From Prochlorococcus marinus str. NATL2A (GTDB lineage: Bacteria > Cyanobacteriota > Cyanobacteriia > PCC-6307 > Cyanobiaceae), in assembly GCF_000012465.1 (NCBI RefSeq), contig NC_007335.2, positions 1,260,001 through 1,292,000 of the forward strand: 32,000 nt of DNA, given 5' to 3'. Shown here piece after piece: positions 6,589-30,353 of this stretch (its first letter is position 1; the number at the start of each line of letters is the position of its first letter). The notes beneath the pieces are model-generated. The model searched no databases, was not told the origin of the DNA, and was given only the letters and a program-made list of their open reading frames with translations. The position numbers and the translations under genes were made by a program.

Positions 6589-6599
6589 AAGAGATAATC

Positions 6600-6893
6600 C
6601 TATTTACGAGTTTTTTTACGACTAAACATTGCAAGCATCCTGTCTGTAACCAAAAAGCCACCAATCACATTGAACAAAGCGAATCCAAGAGATATTGAGC
6701 CAATTATTAGTAGAGGTAAGTTGTCTCCTGATTTTATTATTAATGTTAAAGCTGCCAACATGGTGATGCCTGAGATTGCATTTGCTCCACTCATTAATGG
6801 AGTATGCAAAGTTGGAGGGACCTTACCTATGAGCTCCAAACCCAATAAGCTTCCGAGTAGCAGCACCCAAAGAGCTTCACTAAAAAAACTCAT
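6600..6893 (-). CDS. pntAB: NAD(P) transhydrogenase alpha subunit, membrane part (split-alpha arrangement)
   Basis: 97 aa with three hydrophobic helices. Its ATG (6891-6893) overlaps the TGA of the upstream gene (ATGA at 6890-6893). Confidence 0.85.
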   Translation of the reverse strand: MSFFSEALWVLLLGSLLGLELIGKVPPTLHTPLMSGANAISGITMLAALTLIIKSGDNLPLLIIGSISLGFALFNVIGGFLVTDRMLAMFSRKKTRK

Positions 6894-8035: not shown

Positions 8036-8063
8036 AGTAAAAAAATTTATCCTCTTAAAGATT

Positions 8064-8095
8064 AGGGGAGTAAACGATTAGAGGAGTAAACGTTT
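8064..8095. repeat. tandem 16-bp direct repeat (AGGGGAGTAAACGATT / AGAGGAGTAAACGTTT)
   Basis: 14 of 16 positions are identical, with a perfect 10-mer GGAGTAAACG at 8067-8076 and 8083-8092. It lies in the divergent intergenic region between pntAA and ORF 8185. Confidence 0.9.
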
Positions 8096-8184
8096 GAATA
8101 CCAGCATTTTTAGTTAAGAAAGGTTTTCGTAATAGTTTTTTTTGGCTATGAAGTATTTGAGAAAAAAGTTATCGATCAGAAAAA

Positions 8185-8763
8185 ATGAGCCTTACCGCGA
8201 TCGAATGTCCAGATGGTGTATGTCATAGCCATCACGGTGGCCATGCTGTTCCCAGAACAGCCATGCAAAAGAATCTTCAAAGTCACGGGAAAGAGTGGTG
8301 CGAGCGCTTAGCAGAACGAATTTATGAAATGTCTGTAGACACCTACTCCCAAACAGTCATGCCTAGCCTTCATTCATCTGGATGGCAAAGAAAGCATCTT
8401 GACTGGGAATTCAAGCTAGCGAATAAAGAATCTGAGCCTGACGAAGCGTTGGTAGAGGGAATCATTAATGCCACTGAAAGTTTTTTGAGAAGCAGTGAAG
8501 TTCATCGCTTATTTATACAAGAACTTGTTCAAGGAACGTTTGCCGAAGCAAAGGATGACAGATTGCCATCTAAAGCTGTCAGAAAAGTAATTGAAAATGA
8601 AATAATAGTAATGATCGAAGGGAAGAAAGAAGAATTAACAAATAGGATTGCTAAGGCATTGGAAGAAGAAGCGAAAGGAGACTTAGACTTAGCAAAGAAT
8701 GCAGCTATTGAAGGTATTAATGATGTTGAAAAACTATTGATAAATCATACAGAGGCAGTTTAA
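8185..8763 (+). CDS. hypothetical protein with Cys/His-rich N-terminus
   Basis: A clean 192-aa ORF with an ATG start and no recognised domain. N-terminus 'CPDGVCHSHHGGH'; the C-terminal half is Glu/Lys-rich and helical-looking. Confidence 0.55.
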   Translation: MSLTAIECPDGVCHSHHGGHAVPRTAMQKNLQSHGKEWCERLAERIYEMSVDTYSQTVMPSLHSSGWQRKHLDWEFKLANKESEPDEALVEGIINATESFLRSSEVHRLFIQELVQGTFAEAKDDRLPSKAVRKVIENEIIVMIEGKKEELTNRIAKALEEEAKGDLDLAKNAAIEGINDVEKLLINHTEAV

Positions 8764-8940
8764 TCAGCCAGGTAATCAGTATAAATATATTCCTTAGATT
8801 TAATGTTAATATCTTTGTCAACAAACTTTTAGCCACCCCATTGGTAATTATAAAGAAAATCTAAAATCTTAAGTGATAATTTCGTTTTCCAGACAAAACG
8901 CTAATTTGTACCAAAAAACACAAGTTAACCTCCCGTCGGC

Positions 8941-9201
8941 ATGTCAATGTGTGCTCGTTGGGGATTAATCATGAATGCTTCTTTCAATAAGAGAATAAGT
9001 ATTGCGAGCTGTTGGGCTGCAAGCCGAATAGCTTTACTTGATAGCGTGGAAAGGTACGAAGATAGTTACGCTATCAGCCAAGAATTTTGTGAATGGATTA
9101 CTTGTATAAACACCTACCCTGAGGGTGTAAAAGCATCAACTTTAAAGGTTCCTGACTTTCAAAGAGAAAATTTTGATGCTGATGAACTTTTAGAACGTTG
9201 A
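8941..9201 (+). CDS. small hypothetical protein (shares 'AIxQE[FY]xEWIxCI' motif with ORF 28680-28874)
   Basis: ORF track only. The start could be the internal ATG at 8971 (MNASF...). Motif match to a second ORF in the window. Confidence 0.4.
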   Translation: MSMCARWGLIMNASFNKRISIASCWAASRIALLDSVERYEDSYAISQEFCEWITCINTYPEGVKASTLKVPDFQRENFDADELLER

Positions 9202-9306
9202 TTCTAAATAAATTTGAGATGAAAAAATAATCCAAGTTATTAATGCTTTAAATACACTTTCACGATTTTTTCTTATATCGTATAAATCAGTTTGATTTGG
9301 TATTAC

Positions 9307-10683
9307 ATGCCAGCCGAGAACAAAGAATTAAAAACTGAAAATTTAGTAATTATAGGTTCAGGACCCGCTGGATATACCGCTGCTATCTATGCGGCAAGAG
9401 CAAATCTACAACCGCTTATTATTACTGGGTTTGAAAAAGGGGGAATTCCAGGTGGTCAATTAATGACAACAACATTTGTAGAGAATTTCCCAGGTTTTCC
9501 AAATGGAGTTCAAGGTCCAGAATTGATGGATTTAATAAAAGCACAAGCTGTGAGATGGGGAACAAATCTAATTGAAGAAGATGCCATATCAATTGATCTA
9601 AGCAAAAGACCCTTTTCTATTGTTACTACTACCCAAAAAATCAAAACAAACTCCTTAATTATTTCCACCGGAGCAAGCGCCAATCGTCTAGGCCTTAAAA
9701 ATGAGAAATTATTTTGGAGTAAGGGTATTAGTGCCTGTGCAATTTGCGATGGAGCAACACCTCAATTTAGAGATGAGGAACTTGCCGTAGTTGGAGGAGG
9801 GGACTCGGCTTGTGAAGAAGCCGAATATCTAACAAAATATGGAAGCCATGTACATTTGTTAGTCAGATCAAGGAAACTTAGGGCTTCAGCTGCAATGGCC
9901 GATCGAGTAGAAGCAAATCCCAACATTACGATTCATTGGGAGACAGAGCTTTTAGATGTTTTGGGTAATGATTGGCTAGAGAAATTAAAAGTTAAAAGAA
10001 GAGACACTAACCAAGAAGAAGAAATTTTAGCTAAGGGACTTTTTTATGCAATTGGACATACTCCCAACACGTCTTTATTTACAAATCAGTTAAGTACAGA
10101 CTCAAAAGGTTACTTACTAACACAACCTGGAAGACCTGAAACCTCATTAGAAGGCGTCTATGCCGCTGGAGATGTTGCTGATTCGGAATGGCGTCAAGGT
10201 GTTACTGCGGCAGGCAGCGGTTGCAAAGCAGCTTTAGCTGCTGAAAGATGGCTCACAAAAAACAACTTAGCAACACTTATAAAAAGGGTTGAATTAGAGC
10301 CCTCAAAGGCTGATACAACAAAAATTTTAGAAGTTAGTAACGAGGCAAATTTCGACCCCGAGAAGACATGGCAAAAGGGAAGTTATGCACTAAGAAAGTT
10401 ATATCATGAGACAGAAAAACCTCTCTTCGTAGTTTACACATCCAGTAGCTGTGGCCCTTGTCACATTCTCAAGCCCCAACTTCATAGAGTTCTTAACGAG
10501 TCAAAAGGGAAAGCTATAGGTGTTGAAATTGATATTGAAAACGACCAAGATATTGCCAAGCAAGCTGAAGTAAGCGGTACTCCAACAGTACATCTTTTTA
10601 AAAATAAGGAATTAAAAAAACAATGGAAAGGTGTTAAAACAAGAAGTGAATATAAAGCCGCATTGGATGAACTAATTAATTAG
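9307..10683 (+). CDS. ntrC: NADPH-dependent thioredoxin reductase fused to thioredoxin (NTRC type)
   Basis: N-terminal TrxR module ('[16 protein letters not shown]', redox 'CAICDG', '[10 protein letters not shown]') joined to a C-terminal thioredoxin module with 'CGPC'. I prefer the ATG at 9307 to the TTG at 9292. Confidence 0.88.
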
Positions 10684-10694
10684 CGATTCAAGGT

Positions 10695-10964
10695 CTATCT
10701 TTTCCTGGGCCCTCCTGGTCTATTGCCACCTTGCCTTCCTCCTCCAGGTCCTACGTTTCTTTCTCTATATGTAATACGACCACGTGTTAAATCATAGGGG
10801 CTGATTTCAACAAGAACCTTATCTCCTGCAAGCAATTTTATTCTGAATTTTGTTAATTTTCCTGCGGCCCTACACAAGCATTGATGTCCAGCGGGCTGTT
10901 CAAGAGTTACAAGATAAAATCCATTGCCTTGTTCTTTTTCAATAACGCCGGATGTTTCAATCAT
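10695..10964 (-). CDS. IF-1-like S1/OB-fold protein with Gly/Arg-rich C-terminal tail
   Basis: '[29 protein letters not shown]'-type core, as in InfA, followed by '[20 protein letters not shown]'. It is not in a ribosomal-protein cluster, so it is probably a paralog rather than the canonical infA. Confidence 0.75.
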   Translation of the reverse strand: [89 protein letters not shown]

Positions 10965-11038
10965 GTGGTTTTTTTCATCACTAATTAACTAAAATTATTG
11001 TATTCTAAAAAGTCTTTAATTAACCAATAAATGTATAT

Positions 11039-11254
11039 TTAACTAAAAATGTCTTGCAACTCTCGAGCAGTTTGAAATTGTCCATAATAATAATTCGCAG
11101 AAGCTCTTAAGCCTGCATCAGCTAAACCATCAAAAGCTTCAAAACCAATACTTTTCCATAATTCATTTCCACATAACTTATCCAGTTCCGAAGACGCTTC
11201 TTTAGATAGATTTTCTAATCTCCTATTAAGGTTCTTAATTTGACTAATAGACAT
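11039..11254 (-). CDS. small hypothetical protein
   Basis: A 71-aa ORF with an ATG start, fitting compactly between flanking genes. No recognised motif. Confidence 0.5.
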   Translation of the reverse strand: MSISQIKNLNRRLENLSKEASSELDKLCGNELWKSIGFEAFDGLADAGLRASANYYYGQFQTARELQDIFS

Positions 11255-11306
11255 CGCAAAAATTGGTTTCCCTAATAGTACATACTAACTATTTATTTGC
11301 AATAGC

Positions 11307-12281
11307 TTAAATTGGGAATTTCTTTTTCTCTTCAATATCAAGATCAACTCCTATATCTTTAAGCCTTTTCAATATGACTCCGTAATACTCTTTTATATAA
11401 CCCTCCATTGTTGTTGTATCGGCTGGATTTAACCCAAAAGCCGTATAAGTATCTTCCATCGGAGCATCCAACTTTCCTCCACTACCGCTCAATTCAGAGA
11501 AAGAGAGCCTCTCTGCAACATTCAACGTTGGTTCGAAAAACGATACAACTGATTGAGCAATAGAAATTATTGTTGGGGAAACTTTTAATACTCTTGCTCT
11601 TTTTTCACTGAACTTTTCACATAAATCAACTAAGCCTTTAGCACTCCATGCTTTCGGTCCAACTATTGGGAATCTTCCTTTTATGGTTTGAGGCCTATCT
11701 AAGGCTGCAACAGCAAATCGAGCAATATCCTGCGTATTCATATAAGCAATATCAGTAGGATTCCCACTTATCCAAACTGGTTCATTATTTAAGATAGGAA
11801 TAGCGAATTGACCTATGGCTCCTTGCATGAAAGCAACACCTTGCAAAATGGTGTAGTCCAAAGAAGAACTGACCAACAATTCTTCAGTACAATATTTGAT
11901 ATCCATTAATGGAATTTCTCTATATTTTTCTGCCGCTAACAAAGATAAAAAGACTACTCTTTTTACATTTTTTTCTTCACAAGCGTTAAATAGATTTAAT
12001 TTTCCATCCCAATCAGTTTCGTAGACGCTGCGAGGATCATCAGGTCTACTTGTTGCTGCATCAATAACAGCATCAATGCCATCAAGTGCATACTCAATAT
12101 CTTCTTTATTTAATAAATTGCCACGAGTCAACTCACATCCCCACTCCTGAAGGAATGAGGCAGCTTTTGGTTTTCTAACCATGCAGCGCACTTTATGCCC
12201 TGCATCTATGGCGTTTTTGGCTATTTGGCGACCAAGAGTTCCTGTGCCACCAATCACCAGAACTTGCATAGTTGAATTCAT
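11307..12281 (-). CDS. ycf39: NmrA-like/atypical SDR, Ycf39-like
   Basis: 'VIGGTGTLGRQI' Rossmann motif at the N-terminus and the cyanobacterial Ycf39-like length. An alternative ATG at 12269 (MQVLVIGG...) is equally plausible. Confidence 0.75.
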   Translation of the reverse strand: MNSTMQVLVIGGTGTLGRQIAKNAIDAGHKVRCMVRKPKAASFLQEWGCELTRGNLLNKEDIEYALDGIDAVIDAATSRPDDPRSVYETDWDGKLNLFNACEEKNVKRVVFLSLLAAEKYREIPLMDIKYCTEELLVSSSLDYTILQGVAFMQGAIGQFAIPILNNEPVWISGNPTDIAYMNTQDIARFAVAALDRPQTIKGRFPIVGPKAWSAKGLVDLCEKFSEKRARVLKVSPTIISIAQSVVSFFEPTLNVAERLSFSELSGSGGKLDAPMEDTYTAFGLNPADTTTMEGYIKEYYGVILKRLKDIGVDLDIEEKKKFPI

Positions 12282-12324
12282 TACAAGAGTCGAGCTTAAA
12301 TGGGCAAACTATGGATTGTGGAAA

Positions 12325-12423
12325 TTAATCACCTTGAAGTTTCAATAGAAGGACTCCTCCTAAAAGTCCAACGGGAATCAAAACCCAAAAGACTGCAGCG
12401 ATTCCAAAAATTTCTGATGCCAT
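12325..12423 (-). CDS. petM: cytochrome b6-f complex subunit 7 (PetM)
   Basis: Not in the ORF track (32 aa). Hand translation of the minus strand gives [32 protein letters not shown], a single TM helix with the PetM-type '...KLQG' ending. Confidence 0.85.
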
Positions 12424-12566
12424 TCAGATAACTTAACTCATTTACTATTAAAACCTAAAGACCTTACATTCAGTCCACAATCCAAAGGCATGAGCAAATT
12501 TTTAAAATAAACTTAAAATGAAACTACTAATGATAAAAAACAAAGTTAAATTGATTCTTGATCTAA

Positions 12567-13538
12567 ATGCAGCAAAATATTCATAATAAAGAACCTTTAA
12601 TGGGATCTCCTCATTGGGGTGAGTCTAAGTATTGGAGCTACAAAGATCTTAGGGTTCACTTCAGAGTGACTGGAGAGGAATCTAATCCTCCCATTGTTCT
12701 AATTCATGGGTTTGGAGCAAGCAGCGATCACTGGAGAAATAATGCAGAAATATTTGCATCAGAAGGTTTTAGGGTCTTCGGAATAGATTTAATAGGTTTT
12801 GGAAAATCAGAGCAAAATCTTCAAAGTAAAAGAAAGCATTTAGATAATCAATTTTGGGCAAATCAATTAGCTTCTTTTCTTGATGAAATTGTTGACATTC
12901 AAAAGAACGGAAAAGTTATATTAATTGGAAATTCATTGGGAGCTTTAACAGCAATCACAACTCTCTCTAATAGACCAGAGTTAATAAAAACAATAATTGC
13001 AGCACCACTACCAGAGCCAGTTTTTGTTAATCCAATTAAATTTTCTTTTCCAAATTGGCTTTTAAAAGTTAAAAGTTTTCTGATAAAAATTGTTTTTCAT
13101 TTATTTCCACTTAAGACATTAGTAAATTTGATATCAAGAACAAAATTAATTACTTTTGCTCTTCAAAGCGCCTATTTTCGCTCAATTTTAAATGATACTC
13201 CTCTAAAAAGGATAGTTACAGTCCCAGCCCAGAGAGTCAACGCATCCAAAGCTCTAAGATCTATGTGCATTGGAATGAGCAATAGACCAAATTTGGCAAA
13301 AGGTCCATCTATTATTGAGAAGATTCAAAACCTGCCAAATCGTCCCCCAATTTTATTAATTTGGGGAAAACAGGATAAATTGATACCTATATTTTTAGGA
13401 AAAAAACTAATAAAGCTCCATCCTTGGCTTAAATTAACCGTAGTTGACGAAGCAGGCCATTGTCCCCACGATGAATTACCGAAACATTTCAATCAAATTG
13501 TTATGAAATGGCTGAAGAACTTAAAAACTTCTAAGTAA
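12567..13538 (+). CDS. alpha/beta-fold hydrolase
   Basis: 'LIHGFGAS' and nucleophile elbow 'GNSLGA', with a C-terminal 'AGHCPHDE'. The start may be the internal ATG near 12600. Confidence 0.75.
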
Positions 13539-13543
13539 AAAAT

Positions 13544-14047
13544 ATGAAGCACACACTTTCAGTTTTAGTTGAAGATGAATCTGGAGCACTAAGCAGGATT
13601 GCAGGCCTTTTTGCAAGAAGAGGATTTAATATTGATAGCTTGGCTGTTGGTCCTGCAGAAGCCAAAGGGATATCTAGATTAACAATGGTCGTTCAAGGAG
13701 ATGAATCGACGCTTCAACAAATGACCAAACAACTAAACAAATTAATCAATGTTTTAGAAGTTCTCGATTTGACAACTTTACCAGCTGTAGAGAGAGAGTT
13801 GATGCTCTTGAAAGTCTCTGCTTCATCTGAAAACAGAGGGAAAATATTAGATCTTGTTCAAGTTTTCAGAGCAAAAGTTGTAGATGTTTCGGATAGTGCT
13901 TTGACACTTGAAGTAGTTGGTGATCCAGGCAAACTTGTTGCTCTGGAAAATTTATTGAAGCCTTATGGAATTTTAGAAATTGCTCGGACAGGGAAAGTTG
14001 CTCTTAAGAGGGCCTCAGGTGTAAATACAGAAATGTTAAAAACCTAA
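13544..14047 (+). CDS. ilvH: acetolactate synthase small (regulatory) subunit
   Basis: '[34 protein letters not shown]' is the typical ACT-domain N-terminus of IlvH/IlvN. Confidence 0.92.
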
Positions 14048-15536: not shown

Positions 15537-16613
15537 ATGACGATCGCTGTTGGAAGCGCAACAGAACGAGGTTGGTTTGACGCCCTCGATGACTGGTTAA
15601 AGCGCGACCGATTCGTATTTGTTGGTTGGTCTGGACTACTACTCTTCCCTACGGCTTTCCTAGCTATTGGTGGATGGTTTACAGGTACAACCTTCGTTTC
15701 TTCCTGGTACACCCATGGTGTAGCCAGTTCTTACCTTGAGGGATGCAATTTCCTCACAGCCGCTGTTAGTACTCCTGGCGATGCCATGGGTCACAGTCTT
15801 CTATTCCTTTGGGGACCAGAAGCTCAGGGCGATTTAACACGTTGGTTCCAACTTGGTGGCCTTTGGAATTTCGTTGCTCTTCACGGCGCGTTTAGTCTTA
15901 TCGGCTTCATGCTTCGTCAATTCGAAATTGCCAGACTAGTTGGTATCCGTCCATATAACGCACTTGCTTTCTCAGCAGTTATTGCAGTATTTACTGCTTG
16001 CTTCCTTATCTATCCATTAGGACAGCACAGTTGGTTCTTCGCTCCTTCTTTTGGAGTTGCAGCAATATTCCGTTTCATCCTCTTCATTCAAGGATTTCAC
16101 AACATTACGCTTAACCCATTCCACATGATGGGAGTAGCAGGAATTCTTGGTGGTGCTCTTCTTTGTGCTATTCACGGTGCAACAGTTCAGAACACTCTTT
16201 ATGAAGATTCAAGTCAGTACTCTGAAGGTAAAGCTCAGAGTTCTACTTTCAGAGGTTTCGATCCAGTTCAAGAAGAAGAAACTTACTCATTTATTACAGC
16301 AAACCGTTTCTGGAGTCAGATTTTCGGAATTGCTTTCTCAAATAAGCGTTTCCTCCACTTCTTGATGCTCTTCGTACCAGTAACAGGTATGTGGGCTGCA
16401 TCAATTGGAATCGTTGGATTAGCTCTAAACCTTCGTGCTTACGACTTTGTTAGCCAAGAAATCAGAGCTGCTGAAGATCCTGAATTCGAAACTTTCTACA
16501 CAAAAAATATCCTTCTTAATGAAGGTATGCGTGCATGGATGTCTTCTGTAGACCAACCACACGAAAACTTTGTATTCCCTGAGGAGGTACTCCCACGTGG
16601 AAACGCCCTTTAA
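15537..16613 (+). CDS. psbD: photosystem II D2 protein
   Basis: Unmistakable D2 sequence ('[25 protein letters not shown]', 'EVLPRGNAL' C-terminus). At 358 aa it is longer than the 352 aa I recall for the canonical protein. Confidence 0.98.
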
Positions 16614-17979
16614 TAGTTTACTCAAAGCTCCTAATCAAAGTCTTGAAGAGACTGGTTACGCCTGGTATGTAGGAAATGCAAGGCTAATCAATCTTTCAGG
16701 AAGACTTTTAGGCGCTCACATTGCTCACGCAGGACTAATTGTGTTCTGGGCAGGCGCGATGATGCTTTTCGAAGTAAGTCACTTCACCATGGATAAACCC
16801 ATGTGGGAACAAGGCTTAATTTGTATGCCTCACGTAGCCATGTTTGGATACGGCATTGGTCCAGGTGGAGAAGTCACGGATGTATGGCCTTTCTTCATTG
16901 CTGGTGTTATTCACCTAGTTGCATCTGGAATCCTTGGCTTTGGTGGTGTTTTTCACTCCCTTGCAGGCCCAGAGAAACTTGAAGAAGATTTCCCATTCTT
17001 CTCTACTGACTGGAGAGATAAAAACCAAATGACCAATATTCTTGGTTTTCATTTGGTTGTTCTTGGTGTTGGAGCTCTTCTATGGTCCATTAACTGGATG
17101 TACATAGGTGGTGCATACGACACTTGGGCTCCAGGTGGAGGAGAAGTTAGGTTGATCAACCCAACACTCGATCCAAGAATTATTTTTGGATATCTGCTAT
17201 CAACCCCATGGGGTGGTGGTGGTTGGATGGTTGGTGTTAACTCAATGGAAGATATTGTCGGAGGACATGTTTACCTGGGAGTGATTGAAATAATTGGTGG
17301 TCTTTTCCATATCTTCACTCAGCCTTACGGGTGGGCAAGAAGAGCCTTTATCTGGAACGGTGAAGGTCTTCTAAGTTATGCGTTAGGTGGAATCTGTGTC
17401 GCAAGTTTTGTTGCCTCATGTTTCATCTGGTTTAACAACACTGCCTATCCATCTGAGTTCTACGGTCCAACAAACGCTGAAGCTTCTCAGGCCCAAAGTT
17501 TTACATTCCTAGTTCGTGACCAACGAATTGGAGCAAATGTAGGTTCAACAATGGGTCCGACTGGTTTAGGTAAATACCTAATGCGTTCTCCTACAGGTGA
17601 AATCATCTTTGGTGGAGAGACTATGCGTTTTTGGGATTTCCGAGGACCTTGGCTTGAGCCTCTTAGAGGACCAAATGGTCTCAGCCTTGAGAAGATTCAA
17701 AATGATATTCAGCCTTGGCAAGTTCGCCGCGCTGCTGAATACATGACACATGCTCCAAACGCTTCTATCAACTCAGTTGGTGGAATCATTACTGAGCCCA
17801 ATGCTGTTAACTTTGTTAACTTGCGTCAATGGCTAGCAGGTGCTCAATTCTTCCTTGGTTGGTTTACTTTTGTAGGTCATCTTTGGCATGCCGGTCGTGC
17901 GAGAGCCGCTGCGGCTGGATTTGAAAAAGGTATCAGTCGTTCACAAGAGCCTGCTCTTTCAATGCCTGATCTAGATTAG
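16597..17979 (+). CDS. psbC: photosystem II CP43 chlorophyll apoprotein
   Basis: Unmistakable CP43 ('[10 protein letters not shown]', '[23 protein letters not shown]', '[19 protein letters not shown]'). Probable GTG start at 16597 (VETPFN...), preceded by GAGGAGG (16581-16587) inside the psbD 3' end. This is the classic psbD-psbC overlap. Confidence 0.97.
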
Positions 17980-24107: not shown

Positions 24108-25352
24108 TTAGAATCTAAATTCTGTAAGAAGTACTGCACCAGTGATGTCCTTTCCTTCTGCTTCAACATCTGTTGATCCAAATACAGCAGGAGTTACTGT
24201 TACGCCGTCGTTAATTTTGAACTCGTAATAAGCTTCCCAAACTGTATTGTCCTCAGATGGATCAGATCCACTACCTTTTATACCAGTAGCAGCTTGTCTT
24301 GAACCAAATGCAACACCAGCTCTATTGCCATCAACAAAAAGATCTTTCCAACCAAGACCAATCATCCAACCTGATGTATCTTCCGCCTGACCAGCTGAAG
24401 GGCTGTCCATAGAAGCAGATTCATAACCAACCTGAATTTCAGGGATAGCACCTGTTTCGTCTGGCTTCCAGTATCCTCTTAGACCGTAAGCAGTGATATC
24501 ACCATCATGGTCTGCAAGTTTTGAATGGTAGTAACCATCGTAACCATTAGCACCATTTTCTTTAAATGAAGTTGCAAGAGAAACTTGCCACTGAGGAGAA
24601 CCATACTCAATCTTAGTTAAGACGAAATTCCTGGTTTTCTCACCAAACAGGCCATTATCACTTGATGAATCAGCTCCATCTTTAGCAGTGTAGTTAGCAC
24701 TTACAGCCCATCTAGCAGCAGAGGGATCTTCAACTTCCTGTGTCCATGCAACACCAAATCCTGGGCTTGTGCTTGAACCATAAGAAGAGCCATTAGGACC
24801 ATTAGCAAATTGCTTAGTAATTGGCTTATAGATTGAAGCAGAACTAGCTAGCATGTAGTAGTTTTCAATTCTTGGTCCAACCCAAACTTGAAGAGAATCT
24901 CCTACTGGGAATTGATACCAAAGTTTGTCTACCTTCAATGTGCCGCCATTTTTATTAGCAGCTGACAAGTAAGTACCCTGTCCAGAATCACCAAAATGAT
25001 CGCTTACGTTACCAGTCTTGATACGGGTATAAAGATTATCTTCACCAGTGAAACTTGTATTCAGATTTAACTGATACATATATTCCATAGTGATGCTGTC
25101 AGTATCTGACTCTGAATCATCATCAACGTAACCAGTAATGAAAGCAGCCTTACCACTCATCTTTGTTGATGAAGAGAACTGACCAGCCATTACTTCGCCG
25201 AGTTGCGCTTCTACGCCATCAACACGAGCCTGAATGATTTCAGAACTAAGATCTGATTCGCTAGATACCGGAGAAACATCGGCATTAGCGGCTAATGGTG
25301 CCATTAGGCCCAAAGCAGCAGGAGCTACCAGCAAACGCTGAAAAAGCTTCAT
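24108..25352 (-). CDS. som: outer-membrane porin (cyanobacterial Som/OprB-like)
   Basis: Signal peptide 'MKLFQRLLVAPAALGLMAPLAANA', a coiled segment 'ARVDGVEAQLGE', then alternating beta-strand-like sequence ending in '...LTEFRF'. It seems too short to contain an SLH domain. The ATG at 25352 has a GAGGA upstream, whereas the ORF-track start at 25376 is a TTG. Confidence 0.88.
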   Translation of the reverse strand: MKLFQRLLVAPAALGLMAPLAANADVSPVSSESDLSSEIIQARVDGVEAQLGEVMAGQFSSSTKMSGKAAFITGYVDDDSESDTDSITMEYMYQLNLNTSFTGEDNLYTRIKTGNVSDHFGDSGQGTYLSAANKNGGTLKVDKLWYQFPVGDSLQVWVGPRIENYYMLASSASIYKPITKQFANGPNGSSYGSSTSPGFGVAWTQEVEDPSAARWAVSANYTAKDGADSSSDNGLFGEKTRNFVLTKIEYGSPQWQVSLATSFKENGANGYDGYYHSKLADHDGDITAYGLRGYWKPDETGAIPEIQVGYESASMDSPSAGQAEDTSGWMIGLGWKDLFVDGNRAGVAFGSRQAATGIKGSGSDPSEDNTVWEAYYEFKINDGVTVTPAVFGSTDVEAEGKDITGAVLLTEFRF

Positions 25353-25366
25353 TGTGTCCTCACACA
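25353..25366 (-). promoter_or_regulatory. porin RBS embedded in a GUGUGAGGA element (candidate Yfr1-type sRNA target)
   Basis: The minus-strand mRNA reads 5'-UGUGUGAGGACACAAUG. GUGUGAGGA is complementary to UCCUCACAC, the core of the conserved cyanobacterial Yfr1 motif as I recall it. Confidence 0.4.
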
Positions 25367-25503
25367 AATATGTCAAGCAAATAATAGTGTATTCAATAAA
25401 ACATTTCAGAGCGAAAGATCTTAGAAGTATCTTTTTATACAGCGAGATATATTATTCGAACTATTAGTTAGCGAATTAATCTAAAATTATTACTTAGAGT
25501 TAA

Positions 25504-26376
25504 TTAATTTTCGGCACAAAGAGGGAAGCCAAGGGACTCTCTTTCCTCTAACCAAGCTTCAGCAACTTTACGAGCTAAAGATCGAATCCTTGCAATAATC
25601 TTAGTTCTCTCAGTAACAGAAATAACCCCTCTTGCTTCTAATAAATTAAATGTATGACTGCATTTTAAAACGTAATCAAGGCAAGGTGCAGGTAGTTTTT
25701 TAGCGATTAACTGATGAGCCTCTTCCTCATAAATTTCAAAAAGTTTCCTTAAATTTTCCGAGTTAGATTCTTCAAAATTATACTTACATTGACCTGTTTC
25801 AAAAGGAAGCCAGATATCACCATATTTAGTCTTTTTATTCCAAGAAAGGTCCCAAATACTTTCAACATTTTGTAGATACATTGCCAATCGCTCCAAGCCA
25901 TAAGTGATCTCAATTGAAACAGGCTTGCAATCAAGACCTCCACATTGTTGAAAATAAGTAAATTGGGTGACTTCCATCCCATCAAGCCAAACTTCCCAAC
26001 CCACTCCCCATGCGCCTAAAGTTGGAGATTCCCAATTATCTTCAACGAATCTAATATCGTGGTCCTTAGCTGAAATCCCCAAGGCTTCAAGAGAAGATAA
26101 ATAAATCTCTTGTATACCGTCTAAAGAAGGCTTGATAAGAACTTGATATTGAAAATAATGCTGTGCTCTATTTGGATTGTCTCCATACCTACCATCAGTA
26201 GGACGACGACAGGGCTCTGGGTAAGCTACAGCCCAAGGCTCAGGTCCTATCGCTCTTAAAAAAGAATGAGGGCTCATAGTCCCTGCGCCCTTTTCTAAAT
26301 CATATGGCTGAAGCAGCAAACAACCCTTCTCACTCCAGAAATTATTGAGGCTAGAGATTATGTCCTGAAAGTACAT
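25504..26376 (-). CDS. glyQ: glycine--tRNA ligase alpha subunit
   Basis: '[26 protein letters not shown]' and the whole 290-aa sequence are typical GlyQ. Confidence 0.96.
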
Positions 26377-26549
26377 TAGTGTTGATATAACTGGAGCTAG
26401 AGGTAATCAGCTTAACTTGGCAGGGCTTATAACAAAGAAGTAACTCCAGTACCCCTTGTTTTCAAACAGCTCAGCCGAGAAATTCAGTTAAATTCTAAAT
26501 CAACTATCGAGCATTTAAAGCTGAGTATTTAGATGAGGACAAACCAAAG

Positions 26550-26569
26550 AATAAGTATATATACTTATT
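26550..26569. repeat. 20-bp perfect palindrome AATAAGTATATATACTTATT
   Basis: Checked base by base and self-complementary over all 20 positions. It lies in the 530-bp non-coding gap at the core/island junction. Confidence 0.9.
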
Positions 26570-26906
26570 AGGTAAAAAGAAAAAATTACAATTACATCAC
26601 AGTGCACATAGAAATAAGATGATTAGCTCATTAGGTCATACTGCAACTAATAATTCAAATATTATTGAAGTTTTAAGATGTATAAGAAGCAGCTGACGCT
26701 GTCAACCTCTAGATAAAATAAGTTTTTAGATTATATTGATTTAAAAGAATATTTTTACTATATATTGAGAATAAATCATACTAGATCGAATACATTTGAG
26801 CGTAATTTGATGCTGTAAAATCCATGCCAGAAGAAAGATAGTACATCAGTATCTATTGTTCCGATTCGTCACAAGACGTATATTAAATGCGTATTTAGCT
26901 AAACCC

Positions 26907-27527
26907 ATGGAATTATCGCCTACGGAGGTGGTTGACTTAGCGAATATTCCGCTCAACAGCGAAGTCACTAAGGGGCTAGTGCCCGCGCAAGTAGAGTACG
27001 TTAAGGAATCTGTCGTAGAGATCAACGAGGAGCTGAGTTGCGTTGGGCAATCACTAAGGGCTGTGGCGGCCAACCTCTCCGACATAAAGAGTAACATCAA
27101 GCCTGGGAACTGGAGGGCCTTCCTGAAGTCAGGAGCTATCAACTGCTCAGAAAGGTTTGCTATTGACCTTGTAAGCGCATATACAAATTGGCTAGGTGGC
27201 TCCGATATAGACGACAACATGCTCGCTTCACTAACGCCTAGATCGTTGGCGTTAATGGGCAGCAAAGGAGTGACAGACAAGGAGCGGCAAAAGGTATTTG
27301 AAGCCGTTGGGAACGGCGAAAGAATGACAGAAGCGACCGTAAGAATACTAGTTAAAGGGAACAAGAAAAAAGCTAACAAAGCCTCACAGAAAAGTGAAAG
27401 CGAAAAGATTAAATCACTGAAAGAAAAGATCGAGACTTACAAGAAAGTAATCAATAACCTTCAAGATGAAAACAAAAAACTTAGTAAATTACTATCAAAC
27501 AGAGAAAAAATTGAGTCCCTTGTCTAG
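26907..27527 (+). CDS. DUF3102-like protein with Lys-rich coiled-coil tail (mobile-element-type)
   Basis: 'GNWRAFLKSGAINCSERFAIDLVSAY ... LTPRSLALMGSKGVTDKERQKVFEAV..GERMTEATVRILV' fits my recollection of the DUF3102 pattern (G-x-W..[FW]L...S.RTA..[YL]..A, then 'L.PS.L..L......E....V'). The C-terminal 60 aa is a heptad-like K/E/L-rich segment. Start is the ATG at 26907 or the TTG at 26856. The first ~450 nt are much more GC-rich than the surroundings. Confidence 0.65.
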   Translation: MELSPTEVVDLANIPLNSEVTKGLVPAQVEYVKESVVEINEELSCVGQSLRAVAANLSDIKSNIKPGNWRAFLKSGAINCSERFAIDLVSAYTNWLGGSDIDDNMLASLTPRSLALMGSKGVTDKERQKVFEAVGNGERMTEATVRILVKGNKKKANKASQKSESEKIKSLKEKIETYKKVINNLQDENKKLSKLLSNREKIESLV

Positions 27528-27569
27528 TAATTATCACAAAAAAAGAAATTAACTACTACTCTTATTTAA

Positions 27570-27743
27570 AATGAAAACCACCAACTTCAGCTCTAGAACC
27601 CCTAACCAAATTAAATCAAAAGATAAGGAGGCTCATAACTTAGAGAAGGGAATCACGAAGGAATTACTAGACAAATACAAGCCCAAAGTTCTGTACAACA
27701 TAGAGACCTTAAACGAAAGGAAAGTTCAAAGGAGAGTAGCTTA
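27570..27743 (+). CDS. small basic orphan protein (57 aa), cassette gene 2
   Basis: Hand-translated (below the ORF-track cutoff): MKTTNFSSRTPNQIKSKDKEAHNLEKGITKELLDKYKPKVLYNIETLNERKVQRRVA*. It starts 42 nt after the upstream stop and ends 5 nt before the next start. Confidence 0.4.
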
Positions 27744-27748
27744 AGATT

Positions 27749-27910
27749 ATGAATAAGAATTCAAAGTCTAGGAATGGATTCATCCATTTATACAATCCCA
27801 AGAAAGAAGGATTAGGATCTTACGACGTACACTATATAAATGCCTACAAAAAAGATAAAAGTTTAAAAGATAATATTAAAAATAGTGATAGAGAGAGGTA
27901 TGCAGCATGA
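27749..27910 (+). CDS. small orphan protein (53 aa), cassette gene 3
   Basis: Hand-translated: MNKNSKSRNGFIHLYNPKKEGLGSYDVHYINAYKKDKSLKDNIKNSDRERYAA*. GGAGAG sits 12 nt upstream of the ATG, and the stop overlaps the next ATG (ATGA at 27907-27910). Confidence 0.4.
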   Translation: MNKNSKSRNGFIHLYNPKKEGLGSYDVHYINAYKKDKSLKDNIKNSDRERYAA

Positions 27911-28227
27911 TTCCATTTATCAGAAGTCTTTCAGAGCTAATGGCAATTACAGACTCAAGAGACAGCCAAAAACATATCTCTCAATACAATGAGAGCTATA
28001 GCTCGACAGTAGATAGCGGACAAAGAAAACGATACATAAAGTCTCTTGACAAGAAAGAAGTCAACCTGCCTGATTTACCTAAAACAATACGGCGTAAATG
28101 GATGCAAAATAAAACATCTATATCAAAATTCATTGATGATTTAGATTATAATAATCAGATACAATCTTCCTATGATCTGACCTTAATAGAAAGACAAAAT
28201 AAGAGAAATCAACAGGATGTTGCCTAA
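27907..28227 (+). CDS. hydrophilic orphan protein (106 aa), cassette gene 4
   Basis: ORF track. ATGA overlap with the upstream ORF, a GAGAGAGG SD-like run 8 nt upstream, and no recognised domain. Confidence 0.5.
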   Translation: MIPFIRSLSELMAITDSRDSQKHISQYNESYSSTVDSGQRKRYIKSLDKKEVNLPDLPKTIRRKWMQNKTSISKFIDDLDYNNQIQSSYDLTLIERQNKRNQQDVA

Positions 28228-28229
28228 TT

Positions 28230-28571
28230 ATGAAAACAATTAAAATAAATCAGGTGATAGAGTATTTATCTCCGACATTAGTTTTCTCATATTTTTTTAT
28301 TCATAATATTTTTCTAGTTCTTATTGGAATAACCTTTTCATTTTATTTAATAAATATTAATATGATTAATAATCTTAAAAAATCTATTTATAAAAATTTA
28401 GCTGTAAAAAATGAAACCGAAGATTTTAATAAAAATGAAAAAAAAATAAATTCCAATACTATTAATATAAAATCTACTAAAGAAGATATGAAGCTCACAT
28501 TAGTTGAAGAAATAGAAGAGTTTGGATTTATACCATCAATAGATAAGAAAAATAATAGTAATGCAGCATAA
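28230..28571 (+). CDS. small membrane protein (113 aa), cassette gene 5
   Basis: ORF track. It starts 2 nt after the upstream stop. A ~30-residue hydrophobic stretch 'PTLVFSYFFIHNIFLVLIGITFSFYLINI' is followed by a Lys/Asn/Glu-rich tail. Extremely AT-rich. Confidence 0.5.
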   Translation: MKTIKINQVIEYLSPTLVFSYFFIHNIFLVLIGITFSFYLININMINNLKKSIYKNLAVKNETEDFNKNEKKINSNTINIKSTKEDMKLTLVEEIEEFGFIPSIDKKNNSNAA

Positions 28572-28630
28572 TATATTTTTAATACATAAACAAAGATAAA
28601 ATTAACTCTATTTTCAAAGGCTTTTATCTC

Positions 28631-28659
28631 TTTACAAATAATTTAATAAAAGGTATTCT
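28631..28659 (+). promoter_or_regulatory. candidate sigma70-type promoter for ORF 28680
   Basis: TTTACA (28631-28636), a 17-nt spacer, then TATTCT (28654-28659), about 20 nt upstream of the ATG. AT-rich context makes chance matches likely. Confidence 0.25.
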
Positions 28660-28679
28660 AGTATACATGCCATAAATAA

Positions 28680-28874
28680 ATGCAAGAAGATCCCAAAAGC
28701 ATAGAAGATTTATTAGTCAAAGGTTTATCTCATATTCTAAAAAGAACAGTAGAGGTCAGTCCAAGGGATCAATTAGCAATTGCCCAAGAGTATAAAGAAT
28801 GGATAAATTGCATATCTGCTAGTGATTTCTCAGAGCAAGAGATTCTAGTAATAGATAAGTTTACATTTACCTAG
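28680..28874 (+). CDS. small hypothetical protein, paralog-like to ORF 8941-9201
   Basis: 64-aa ORF. 'QLAIAQEYKEWINCIS' aligns with 'SYAISQEFCEWITCIN' of the 8941-9201 ORF at 9 of 16 identical positions by eye. Confidence 0.45.
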   Translation: MQEDPKSIEDLLVKGLSHILKRTVEVSPRDQLAIAQEYKEWINCISASDFSEQEILVIDKFTFT

Positions 28875-29578
28875 AATATATATTTTATCTGGTTAAAAAT
28901 TCTAAAAATATATATCTTTTATTTTATGATTTAAGACTAATAGGATAAGTTAAAGATAATTTTTGGAATTTAATAAATATATAGTCTATCTATGTAACTA
29001 TAAATAGAAAAATTGAAATTTATTATCTATTTTTATATTTTCTTATTTAATTTATAATAAAACTATATAGATAATTGAAATAAATACCCAGATTCACGTT
29101 AAGCTATCAAGGAAAGAAAATTGACACTAATTGATACTAATGTACTATAGAGAGACGTTTCGATCGTATCGAAGAATCTCGATTTTCTTTCACCCACTCT
29201 TACAAAATCATTTAATTTACTGAGCATGATTAATGAAACAGTCAACAGAGGTAGGGAGATCTTCTCGTATTTAATCAACCAATCAACTGGAGTATCTAAT
29301 GGAATCTTCAAGCACTTCAAGCTGGGAATCGACAAAGAGCCTAAAGCTTTCAAGCGGACTAGAAATTGGAAGAGAAGCACTTATAACAAGCTCCACAAGA
29401 GAGTTAGTTGAATTTTACTGGACAAATCGGAAGCGATTTTCTGGCGGTTACTTAGGCTTCCCTTCAAAAATAAATAGTACTCAGGAGAAATAAAAACTGA
29501 ACTTAAAATTTCCTTTTTTTGTTTTTTGATCTAAGTAGATAATTTATTATTAAGGCTATTACAAAAAACAAATTAATA

Positions 29579-29604
29579 AATAATGATTATCATTTATCAT
29601 TATT
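29579..29604. repeat. inverted repeat AATAATGAT-N8-ATCATTATT (Fur-box-like)
   Basis: 9-bp perfect arms at 29579-29587 and 29596-29604. The stretch AATAATGATTATCATTTAT matches the E. coli-type Fur consensus GATAATGATAATCATTATC at 14 of 19 positions by hand. It overlaps the stop and last codons of ORF 29590-29805. Confidence 0.6.
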
Positions 29605-29805
29605 TACTTGATACGAATTCGGAGCAATGATTAAAAATAATATCCACCAAACAAGAATAAAAAATCCTAAAATAGAAGATATTATAATGTTATTTAAGAG
29701 TTTAAAACTAAAAATTAGAACTAAAACACCAAAGCTAATAATTGACCAAGGTTGACACCAATAAGGCTTTGAATCCCAAAAACTTTTTTTTGCATTTGTA
29801 TCCAT
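29590..29805 (-). CDS. small two-TM membrane protein ('KPYWCQPWSI' motif)
   Basis: 71 aa with two hydrophobic helices. I recall the 'W.SKPYWCQPW' N-terminus as a conserved small cyanobacterial membrane-protein family, but this is unverified. It lies 47 nt downstream of the repeat-protein gene on the same strand. Confidence 0.55.
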   Translation of the reverse strand: MDTNAKKSFWDSKPYWCQPWSIISFGVLVLIFSFKLLNNIIISSILGFFILVWWILFLIIAPNSYQVNNDK

Positions 29806-29852: not shown

Positions 29853-30353
29853 CTAAGGCTTATCTTCCCAAACAGGCTTATCTTCCTCAACAGGCTTATC
29901 TTCTTCAACAGGCTTATCTTCTTCAACAGGCTTATCTTCCCAAACAGGCTTATCTTCCTCAACAGGCTTATCTTCTTCAACAGGCTTATCTTCCCAAACA
30001 GGCTTTTCTTCCTCAACAGGCTTATCTTCCTCAACAGGCTTATCTTCTTCAACAGGCTTATCTTCCTCAACAGGCTTATCTTCTTCTACAGGCTTATTTT
30101 CCTCAACAGACTTATTTTCTTCAATCGGTTTAATTTCAACTATGTTGTCGATTGAAGAAGAGGAGTCGCTGCTTGTAAAAATCTGAGAGACCTCAATAAC
30201 CGAATCAGACTCGGAGTCCTTAAGTAAAAATTTCAAAACATACCCAAGAGAGACAAACAAAGCTATTGGGAGGAAAAGTCCTAAAAGCAATTTATAGAGG
30301 ATTATTCCTATACCAAGGACACCAATAGAAATAAGAATGTTCTTCTTGTTCAT
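29853..30353 (-). CDS. membrane-anchored acidic protein with C-terminal (E-D-K-P-V-E)n hexapeptide array
   Basis: N-terminal hydrophobic region 'ILISIGVLGIGIILYKLLLGLFLPIALFVSLGYVL', a Ser/Asp/Glu linker, then 15 hexapeptide units running to the TAG stop. Confidence 0.6.
   Translation of the reverse strand: MNKKNILISIGVLGIGIILYKLLLGLFLPIALFVSLGYVLKFLLKDSESDSVIEVSQIFTSSDSSSSIDNIVEIKPIEENKSVEENKPVEEDKPVEEDKPVEEDKPVEEDKPVEEEKPVWEDKPVEEDKPVEEDKPVWEDKPVEEDKPVEEDKPVEEDKPVWEDKP
29856..30125. repeat. 15 x 18-bp tandem repeat (plus-strand unit AGGCTTATCTTCYTCAAC)
   Basis: Segmented by hand. Units 1-13 are near-identical and units 14-15 degenerate. Three units carry the variant ...CCCAAAC (Trp instead of Glu). 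Units 1-3 are identical to units 5-7, giving a 54-bp higher-order block. Confidence 0.97.

Follow-up and report, generated by a model that had tools for sequence, protein, structure and literature searches.

A clade-wide gene cassette beside glyQ in low-light Prochlorococcus: a candidate LexA-controlled operon of putative mobile-element descent

Introduction

What function and what ancestry could account for five tightly packed genes that encode hypothetical proteins and lie next to glyQ in the chromosome of Prochlorococcus marinus str. NATL2A, a member of the low-light I (LLI) clade (Hackl et al. supplement)? The cassette spans positions 26907-28571 of a 32,000-nucleotide (nt) stretch of this genome (RefSeq contig NC_007335.2, positions 1,260,001 to 1,292,000), hereinafter the window. 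A sequence-only reading of the window had described these genes as an operon-like cassette in an island-like region, led by a gene of mobile-element type, and had placed them among toxin-antitoxin, abortive infection, superinfection exclusion or maintenance modules, without a choice between these.

The comparative analysis described here points in a partly different direction. The explanation that we favor, with somewhat better than even confidence, is that the cassette is an SOS-controlled, probably autoregulated operon left over from an integrative element and kept by the LLI cells. The strongest functional lead is a conserved promoter that combines a LexA-type box with a palindrome and that had been missed by the sequence-only reading. 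Three parts of the case are laid out below, namely, the selection acting on the genes, the architecture of the promoter, and the recurrence of the first gene next to tyrosine recombinases elsewhere in Prochlorococcus; the alternatives are weighed where the evidence bears on them.

Organization and conservation of the cassette

The list of open reading frames (ORFs) and the sequence place five ORFs on the plus strand, here denoted g1 to g5, followed by a sixth gene, g6:

26907-27527, plus strand: g1 (PMN2A_0779), 206 amino acids (aa)
27571-27744, plus strand: g2 (ABU24055.1), 57 aa, isoelectric point (pI) 10, ending in RVA
27749-27910, plus strand: g3 (PMN2A_2134; ABU24056.1), 53 aa, pI 9.7, ending in ERYAA, with the stop codon overlapping the start of g4
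27907-28227, plus strand: g4 (PMN2A_0780), 106 aa
28230-28571, plus strand: g5 (PMN2A_0781), 113 aa, single-pass membrane protein ending in NAA
28680-28874, plus strand: g6 (ABU24057.1), acidic protein of 64 aa, 108 nt past g5

All six genes are annotated in GenBank as hypothetical, and the main texts in the literature that we searched do not mention the locus tags of the cassette. The genes are separated by 43 nt (g1/g2), 4 nt (g2/g3), -4 nt (g3/g4, an ATGA overlap at 27907-27910) and 2 nt (g4/g5); the first two distances had been given as 42 and 5 nt, a trivial discrepancy, and the other two had been given correctly. Purine-rich runs precede g3 (AAGGAGAG) and g4 (GAGAGAGG), as had been noticed, and the 57- and 53-aa ORFs that had been found by hand translation are real but not new, being present in GenBank as ABU24055.1 and ABU24056.1/PMN2A_2134. 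The G+C content declines along the cassette, being 44% in g1 but only 20% in g5, and the G+C content of third codon positions (GC3) declines from 0.51 to 0.13, with values of 0.48-0.51 in g1 and g2 and 0.30 in glyQ; the hand counts on which the fall in composition had been based (33/60 at 26941-27000 and 13/60 at 28261-28320) are exact. The g2-g4 proteins are basic and hydrophilic (pI 9.4-10.0), whereas g5 contains one strong hydrophobic segment (Kyte-Doolittle 19-residue maximum of 2.07, residues 23-41) followed by a charged tail, just as described from the sequence. No terminator-like site was found on the plus strand within the cassette, and an Rfam scan of 26300-29700 produced no match. 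We infer that g1-g5 are carried on one transcript. A 177-aa ORF antisense to g1 (26846-27379, minus strand) is a shadow ORF produced by the GC-rich third codon positions of g1, and the substitution pattern favors the plus-strand frame.

When one genome from each GTDB species was searched for g1, 24 Prochlorococcus loci were recovered. In 23 of these, g1 is 81-99% identical and the cassette lies between glyQ and the same downstream genes, with tblastn placing g3, g4, g5 (contig permitting), g6 and the downstream genes in constant order beside glyQ; the exact g1 protein is present in 134 blocks of the sequence collection. When ORFs were called anew in 28 LLI loci, all five genes were found in constant order beside glyQ, with lengths of 204-207 aa for g1, 53-60 aa for the ORF at the g2 position, 51-55 aa for g3 (or 61-62 aa counted from an upstream ATG), invariably 106 aa for g4, and 99-116 aa for g5. 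The ATGA overlap of g3 and g4 is retained in all 28 loci, and the frames are unbroken throughout. The median dN/dS values, taken over loci found independently of exact g1 identity, are 0.04 for g1, 0.49 for g2, 0.22 for g3, 0.26 for g4, 0.41 for g5 and 0.10 for g6. The alignments of the small proteins retain recognizable motifs: GITxxLLEKYKP, the sole conserved motif of g2; HLYNPKxEGLGSYDVHYINAYKK...ERYAA in g3; MIPFIRSLSELMAIT, SGQRKRY and LDYNNQIQSSYDLTLLERQ..DVA in g4; and, in g5, a transmembrane core, SYFFxHNIxLVLIGI, that is joined by a variable linker to the C-terminal LxLVExIEExGFIPS. The g6 gene accompanies the cassette in every case and is far better conserved than g2-g5, with 99-100% nucleotide identity among close genomes.

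Given the conservation of ORF order, lengths, overlap, dN/dS and peptide motifs, the cassette is a set of protein genes that evolve under purifying selection and are fixed in the LLI clade. The operon-like packing of five same-strand ORFs, at the positions originally claimed, thus holds across genomes, and the checks that had been proposed, for broken frames, for relaxed nonsynonymous constraint and for genes that never co-occur, returned dN/dS below 0.5 for all genes and co-occurrence in 28 of the 28 loci. The description of the region as island-like has to be qualified, given that the cassette sits at one fixed chromosomal site in every LLI genome sampled. What is hypervariable is only the spacer just upstream, not the cassette itself:

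26377-26839, no strand assigned: glyQ-g1 spacer, 530 nt in NATL2A and 0.5-5.3 kb in other LLI genomes

This spacer is an insertion hot spot, occupied in other LLI genomes by TPR genes, by a glycosyltransferase-like gene, or by one or two genes for a 2OG-Fe(II) oxygenase. In the single-cell genome AG-363-G03 (locus L023), a second, paralogous g1-type module (202-1607) lies directly upstream of the canonical g1 and consists of a 233-aa g1-family gene, a 108-aa membrane ORF with the g4-type motif QRKRYLKSL, and a 113-aa ORF. One single-cell contig (GCA_003213035.1, QCOB01000005.1) is an inverted-duplication chimera that breaks just past g1, an amplification artefact rather than a true variant.

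A composite promoter with a LexA-type box

In an alignment of the 260 nt upstream of g1 across the LLI loci, unalignable DNA abruptly gives way to a near-invariant block of about 47 nt (26840-26886), the anchored pairwise identity being 0.82 in the block vs 0.34 in the preceding 54 nt. The block has the layout TAGTACAtcAGTAtC-n3-TTGTTCCGATTCGTCACAAG-n3-TATATT and can be resolved into three elements:

26840-26853, plus strand: LexA-type box AGTACATCAGTATC, one mismatch to RGTACNNNDGTWCB
26856-26875, plus strand: palindrome element TTGTTCCGATTCGTCACAAG, a weak -35 hexamer (TTGTTC) overlapped by the imperfect palindrome TTGTTCCGA-T-TCGTCACAA
26879-26884, plus strand: -10-like TATATT, 17 nt after TTGTTC and conserved in LLI loci

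Transcription would then start near 26891. The sequence that follows the block (26887-26906) is variable among LLI loci and includes a 1-nt indel in one of them (L024). A longer, 223-aa version of g1 initiated at TTG-26856 was rejected: the additional stretch coincides with the conserved promoter, the sequence past the -10 element is variable, and the indel would shift the frame.

The consensus of the cyanobacterial LexA box, RGTACNNNDGTWCB / AGTACWNWTGTACT, was derived experimentally; promoters of this regulon are the subject of Mazon et al. (2004) and of Li et al. (2010, PMC3091678). Across the LLI loci, 10 of the 26 distinct versions of the box upstream of g1 match it perfectly and the others have one mismatch; the half-sites are near-invariant in 28 loci and the spacer between them is variable, a combination of constraint and freedom that looks like the footprint of a protein that contacts two half-sites. 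The box also matches the recA and lexA boxes of the same strains. It had in fact been listed, without discussion, in a computational scan, where the box of PMN2A_0779 ranks 52nd (p 0.016; supplementary file 24) and the perfect box of the NATL1A ortholog (NATL1_16261/16271) ranks 10th (p 2e-4) (Li et al. 2010, PMC3091678). Like the known members of the cyanobacterial LexA regulon, the g1 promoter carries this shared box within the promoter region, less than 70 nt from the start codon, and the box is conserved across orthologous promoters; it differs from them by the added palindrome, and in NATL2A by the mismatch and by the position of the box upstream of the -35 hexamer.

The palindrome appears to be the LLI version of an operator that is common to the g1 family, (T)GACG-N-CGTC(A). 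It occurs nowhere else in the window and hardly varies among the LLI loci. In relatives of g1 that are 40-52% identical to it, a perfect (T)GACG-N1-5-CGTC(A) palindrome is found at -49/-50, AGTACA at exactly -67, and a TAnnnT hexamer 8-9 nt past the palindrome. GACG-N1-5-CGTC occurs in 6 of the first 10 independent upstream regions of the family, with 0.05 expected, and box and palindrome occur together in 5 of these 10, with 0.015 expected; three regions were added later, two with the palindrome (L047 and L049) and one with a variant (L045), which brings the strict palindrome to 8 of 13 overall. LexA-like boxes are present also 5' of the recombinase genes in two of the related elements discussed below (L033 and L041).

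A second SOS-type promoter lies 2.2 kb downstream of the first:

29121-29148, plus strand: TTGACA-16-TACTAT, with a candidate LexA box (29133-29146) within the -10 element

The box at 29133-29146 is an inverted copy of the first one; it is conserved in about 24 loci and takes the perfect form TAGTACnnnnGTACTA in many of these. The placement of a LexA box over the -10 element is the classical arrangement for LexA repression and lends support to the reading of the first box, too, as a LexA site. The possibility that the 20-nt inverted pair 26838/29129 represents terminal inverted repeats of an element was considered and rejected, two LexA boxes that belong to separate promoters being the better interpretation. 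An NtcA site was rejected as well, given that the spacing of the box is GTA-N6-TAC, not N8.

Several observations weigh against control by LexA. The NATL2A box has one mismatch and reaches only the 52nd rank in the published scan; the window as a whole contains 6 boxes against 4.7 expected, which in a single genome is not above chance, so that the case for LexA rests on conservation between genomes; the box lies just upstream of the -35 hexamer, not over the -10 element, which is less typical of simple repression; the -35 hexamer itself is weak (3/6), and a consensus promoter scanner did not call the promoter; and three of the relatives (L037, L044 and L045) have no LexA-like box near the palindrome. 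Some of these observations also speak for an alternative that we consider unlikely, namely, that the upstream block is governed by g1 or another host factor only, the AGTAC-N4-GTAY box being part of the g1 operator and having no link to DNA damage. The constant company that box and palindrome keep with g1-family genes is compatible with such a scenario, as is the absence of the box from some relatives. It would have to be squared, however, with the fit of the box to an experimentally derived consensus and to the recA and lexA boxes of the same strains, with the same type of box over the -10 element of an independent neighboring promoter that has no g1-type palindrome, with the LexA-like boxes ahead of recombinase genes, and with the induction of integrase-carrying Prochlorococcus elements by mitomycin C. 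On balance, these facts seem to us to favor LexA control of the operon.

A presumed DUF3102-like regulator and four orphan small proteins

Scans of g1-g6 against Pfam, PHROGs, NCBIfam and PADLOC produced nothing significant; for g1, PADLOC returned coiled-coil noise only (E 0.0018), and for g2-g5 it returned nothing. Searches of the Protein Data Bank (PDB) by sequence and profile with g1, g4 and g5 gave coiled-coil or spurious matches only. The earlier view of the products as otherwise orphan is thus borne out, none of the five being placed in a characterized module by profile scans. The one family assignment that had been offered, of g1 as DUF3102-like, fares unevenly. The PF11300 (DUF3102) profile does not match g1 even at E<=1, short of membership by the Pfam gathering score, and finds weak matches in 3 of 72 g1 relatives (best E 3.3e-4). 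The AlphaFold model of g1, built on a 72-sequence alignment (pLDDT 93.8), consists of an all-helical N-terminal domain (residues 1-150) with a long helix (26-63) followed by six shorter helices, which a basic linker connects to the coiled coil at the C-terminus (164-205). In a Foldseek search of the BFVD database with this model, DUF3102 proteins take ranks 1, 3, 12 and 18 with about 150 residues aligned, the top match (E 1.1e-5, probability 1.0) coming from an uncultured marine virus. Thus, judging by the predicted structure, g1 shares the DUF3102 fold; because PF11300 does not match it at E<=1, g1 represents a separate, undescribed sequence family outside Pfam DUF3102, from which it differs also in the added coiled coil.

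The family is sizable. An exhaustive HMMER search of 1.84 billion representatives recovered 114 clusters at 50% identity, 55 of them at E<=1e-10 and most of 200-250 aa. None of the full-length clusters in this search exceeded 52% identity to g1, higher scores coming only from short fragments of the LLI g1 protein itself, and g1 therefore appears to have no ortholog in the heavily sampled high-light (HL) clades. The absence of the cassette from other clades is judged by this g1 search, and the glyQ homologs that were recovered were all from LLI, with at least 91% identity. No match to g1 was detected by tblastn in 50,697 phage genomes, and no relative was found when IMG/VR was scanned with the g1 family alignment.

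We presume that g1 is a dimeric DNA-binding regulator. A Foldseek search of the PDB with the g1 model found no match, so that no solved structure stands behind the presumed DNA binding. Recognition of DNA by the basic linker in the manner of bZIP proteins was considered and rejected: bZIP_1 matches weakly in 7 of 72 members, and the linker is conserved in charge, not in sequence. The DUF3102 (PF11300) proteins of phages, prophages and plasmids resemble g1 in fold, and their genes lie in early or regulatory regions of mobile elements, an Escherichia coli DUF3102 protein being listed beside Gam and an HTH protein; in the literature that we searched, DUF3102 is mentioned only in lists. With no function established for DUF3102, the resemblance gives g1 a context rather than a mechanism.

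The small proteins share one conspicuous feature. The g2-g5 proteins end in RVA, YAA, DVA and NAA, that is, in [AV]A in four of four cases, whereas among 59 long ORFs taken from the window and from four related loci the count is 0. Such endings resemble the last residues of ssrA tags and other C-terminal degrons of ClpXP, and we speculate that they could confer rapid proteolytic turnover on g2-g5. In the case of g5, the conserved C-terminal motif, LxLVExIEExGFIPS, is probably cytoplasmic because the positive charges follow the transmembrane segment. The AA ending recurs in small ORFs of related elements (L033, 6783-7327; L035; L036; L023, 939-1265). The AlphaFold model of g4 is of low confidence (pLDDT 65).

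These properties bear on the proposal that the cassette is a defense or addiction module, be it a toxin-antitoxin, abortive infection or superinfection exclusion system, in which g5 would act as a toxin in the membrane or would mediate exclusion, with the small basic proteins as its antidotes or sensors. A small membrane protein encoded next to tiny proteins with tight translational coupling is what such a module would look like; the C-terminal AA could mark labile, antitoxin-like partners, descent from a mobile element would be in character, and addictive modules are often kept after the recombinase is lost, as the cassette seems to have been. Nevertheless, we find no positive pointer to this reading and regard it as improbable: none of the five proteins has a significant match in PADLOC, PHROGs, Pfam or NCBIfam, no relatives turned up in the phage genomes or viral contigs searched, the putative degron is on the membrane protein itself, and the cassette is fixed and syntenic throughout the clade, whereas defense islands are usually patchy.

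Relatives of g1 in recombinase-carrying elements

The proposal that the cassette derives from an integrative element is based on the genomic neighborhoods of more distant relatives. In LLVII, LLIV and metagenomic Prochlorococcus-like contigs, homologs of g1 that are 40-52% identical to it adjoin genes for large proteins. In the LLVII single-cell genome AG-409-B13 (L033), a g1 homolog with 52% identity follows a 487-aa ORF and is itself followed by four tightly packed ORFs of 52-59 aa; in the metagenome contigs L037-L040, a 219-aa g1 homolog lies behind a 461-aa ORF; in L041, a 454-aa ORF is located 1.6 kb upstream of the g1 homolog, on the opposite strand; and in the LLIV strain P. marinus MIT 1342 (L045), a 522-aa ORF directly precedes the g1 homolog PMIT1342_02640. 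These four large proteins (454-522 aa) are homologous to one another, with E values from 3e-46 to 1.6e-103. The L037 protein aligns with nearly the whole catalytic domain of Pfam Phage_integrase (E 4.8e-5, just under threshold), the L041 and L045 proteins contain the R..YxxR..GH..Y motifs (catalytic Arg, YxxR, GH and Tyr), and the MIT 1342 protein is named 'Phage integrase family protein' in GenBank. The neighbors of the g1 relatives are thus divergent tyrosine recombinases.

At least some of these pairs sit in elements with recognizable boundaries. The MIT 1342 element (5896-13589) has about 40% G+C in a genome of about 56%, lies beside tRNA-Thr, and has as its boundaries the two copies, 7.5 kb apart, of a perfect 20-nt direct repeat; its cargo comprises the recombinase, the g1 homolog, a protein with RTX-like repeats and, at 11235-11445, an array of about five iteron-like repeats. 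The LLVII element is flanked by a repeat pair with 19 of 20 positions identical, 4.6 kb apart. The element-borne g1 relatives have 41-44% G+C. The resemblance extends beyond g1: the N-terminal motif of g4 (MIxPxIRSxxEL..SR) recurs in small ORFs of L033 and L035, and another g4 motif, QRKRY[IL]KSL, recurs in the membrane ORF of the extra module in L023. The description of g1 as a lead gene of mobile-element type, made from the NATL2A sequence, is thereby upheld through the DUF3102-like fold and through relatives next to tyrosine recombinases in low-GC, repeat-bounded elements.

The LLI cassette itself lacks the hallmarks of an element. Tblastn with the recombinases gave no match to the window or to 22 of the 23 species-level loci of LLI; only L023 shows a trace, a very weak match to the C-terminus (E 0.15) between its two modules. 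At the cassette, att-like direct repeats were not found, the window containing short AT-rich repeat pairs only; no tRNA gene adjoins it, the nearest, for tRNA-Ser (CGA), being 5 kb away; and no primase, helicase or polymerase domain is present in g1-g6. Descent from element to chromosome, rather than the reverse, is accordingly no more than probable, and is judged here from GC3, from the distribution of the genes, and from the stacking and insertion behavior of the site. The simplest history would be that an element of this family integrated beside glyQ in the LLI ancestor, that the integrase was lost, and that the remaining module was kept.

The opposite history would have the cassette as an ancestral, vertically inherited chromosomal operon specific to LLI, with a housekeeping or niche role, from which elements elsewhere secondarily gained a copy of g1. 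Strict synteny and the strong purifying selection on g1 (dN/dS of 0.04) would be expected of such an operon, as would the lack of recombinase or att remnants in the window. We consider this scenario quite improbable, in view of the GC3 of g1 and g2 (0.48-0.51 vs 0.30 in glyQ), which fits the 41-44% G+C of the element-borne relatives, of the at least four divergent pairs of recombinase and g1 in different clades, and of the promoter architecture and g4-type motifs that are common to those elements; the lack of full-length clusters above 52% identity in the HMMER search and of HL-clade orthologs, the second paralogous module stacked at the site in one genome, and the insertion hot spot at this site also speak against it. 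That the cassette is merely a decaying, non-functional remnant of an old insertion, as the missing recombinase, the steep fall in G+C and the rapid divergence of g2 and g5 might suggest (the last of these being an awkward fact for our own reading, too), seems very hard to maintain and is already largely refuted by unbroken frames of fixed length in 28 loci, the preserved ATGA overlap, dN/dS below 0.5 for all genes and the conserved peptide motifs.

A proposed mode of regulation and its parallels

Combining these lines of evidence, we propose that the cassette descends from the integrase-adjoining module of small integrative elements with tyrosine recombinases that inhabit low-light Prochlorococcus, and that the LLI copy lost the recombinase. 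Transcription would proceed from a single composite promoter, in which the LexA box is followed by the family palindrome over the -35 hexamer and the spacer, and then by the -10 element; because this promoter includes a LexA box, LexA would hold the operon off and DNA damage would turn it on, as far as conserved motifs can tell. Most simply, a g1 dimer would bind the palindrome and regulate its own synthesis. Translational coupling, through the 4-nt overlap and the gaps of 2-4 nt, would then set fixed ratios of the basic g2-g4 proteins and the membrane protein g5. As to the effector step, our best guess, held with low confidence, is a transient, damage-induced action on the membrane or on DNA, such as arrest of growth or division, or exclusion.

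Among the closest parallels are the tycheposons of Prochlorococcus and its 'cryptic' integrase-carrying elements (Hackl et al., bioRxiv 10.1101/2020.12.28.424599). The g1 relatives resemble them in their location beside a tyrosine recombinase at one end of a low-GC, repeat-bounded element, in one case next to a tRNA gene, and the stacking of modules at one site, as in L023, is shared as well. The NATL2A cassette differs in having no integrase, att repeats, adjacent tRNA gene or replication genes, and in being fixed in the clade rather than variable. In the same study, mitomycin C induced the integrases, excisionases and replication genes of the elements, 'indicating a universal regulatory mechanism'; LexA has 0 occurrences in the main text, and the hallmark genes given for cryptic elements are integrases and excisionases only (bioRxiv 10.1101/2020.12.28.424599). 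The genes that mitomycin C induces in marine Synechococcus include lexA, recA and umuC, and many of those upregulated are located in islands near integrases. A LexA box combined with an element-encoded regulator would fit both sets of findings.

Switches that combine LexA with a regulator of the element are familiar from other systems, including RstR and LexA in CTXphi, Tum in phage 186, and gp7 and LexA in GIL01. For GIL01, the link to LexA is stated in PMC6182141. The temperate-phage switches and the cassette are alike in that a host LexA box and a site for an element-encoded regulator meet at an early-operon promoter; there is no sequence relationship, the cassette contains no phage or lysogeny genes, and the g1 site is putative.

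For g5, a comparison can be made with small membrane proteins induced in the SOS response, such as TisB and DinQ of E. coli, and with the division inhibitors SidA of Caulobacter and YneA of Bacillus. Like these, g5 is small, crosses the membrane once, and is encoded behind a LexA-type box; it shows no sequence or domain similarity to them, has no LysM domain, and is the last of five genes. The comparison is an analogy only.

What seems to be new, then, is an SOS-controlled early or regulatory module of a mobile element that was orphaned, retained by the host, and assembled from protein families that had not been described. No phototroph of the ocean is more abundant than Prochlorococcus, and the locus is a concrete candidate for the common mitomycin-C switch of its mobile elements, with the LexA box, the family palindrome and a DUF3102-like regulator as its parts, the regulator being accompanied in LLIV and LLVII genomes by a tyrosine recombinase of its own. 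The integrase-stripped module, under purifying selection in a whole ecotype, points to co-option into the DNA-damage response of the host and would provide the first functional handle on the DUF3102-like fold and on four orphan small proteins. A bolder synthesis, which we put forward as a doubtful conjecture, is that the locus is a domesticated, LexA-triggered effector operon that provides LLI cells with a DNA-damage checkpoint of a type so far undescribed in cyanobacteria, with g5 and g3/g4 transiently blocking division or growth, the [AV]A tails resetting the system via Clp proteolysis, and the g1 family, together with the LexA box and the TGACG-N-CGTCA operator, being the missing 'universal' mitomycin-C switch of integrase elements.

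Other features of the window

Downstream of the second SOS-type promoter, which is conserved across LLI genomes and would drive this neighboring plus-strand unit, two conserved small ORFs overlap in different frames:

29226-29411, plus strand: small ORF of 61 aa
29299-29493, plus strand: small ORF of 64 aa

The DNA at 29121-29493 is 98.5-99% identical between genomes in which the flanks differ by 4-8%. The pair of small ORFs at 29226-29493 could be a case of dual coding or an RNA element.

Three more observations concern genes elsewhere in the window. An OprB-family porin (24108-25376, minus strand) is 65-84% identical between genomes in which its neighbors are 96-99% identical; it looks like a diversifying surface protein and is possibly a phage receptor. 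A 166-aa protein encoded at 29853-30353 (minus strand) combines a hydrophobic segment at the N-terminus with tandem EDKPVE-type repeats that vary in copy number between genomes. Finally, a full-length Rfam match to IsrR (150 bits) is located at 17011-17194 on the minus strand, antisense to an isiA/pcb-type antenna gene (16570-17979).

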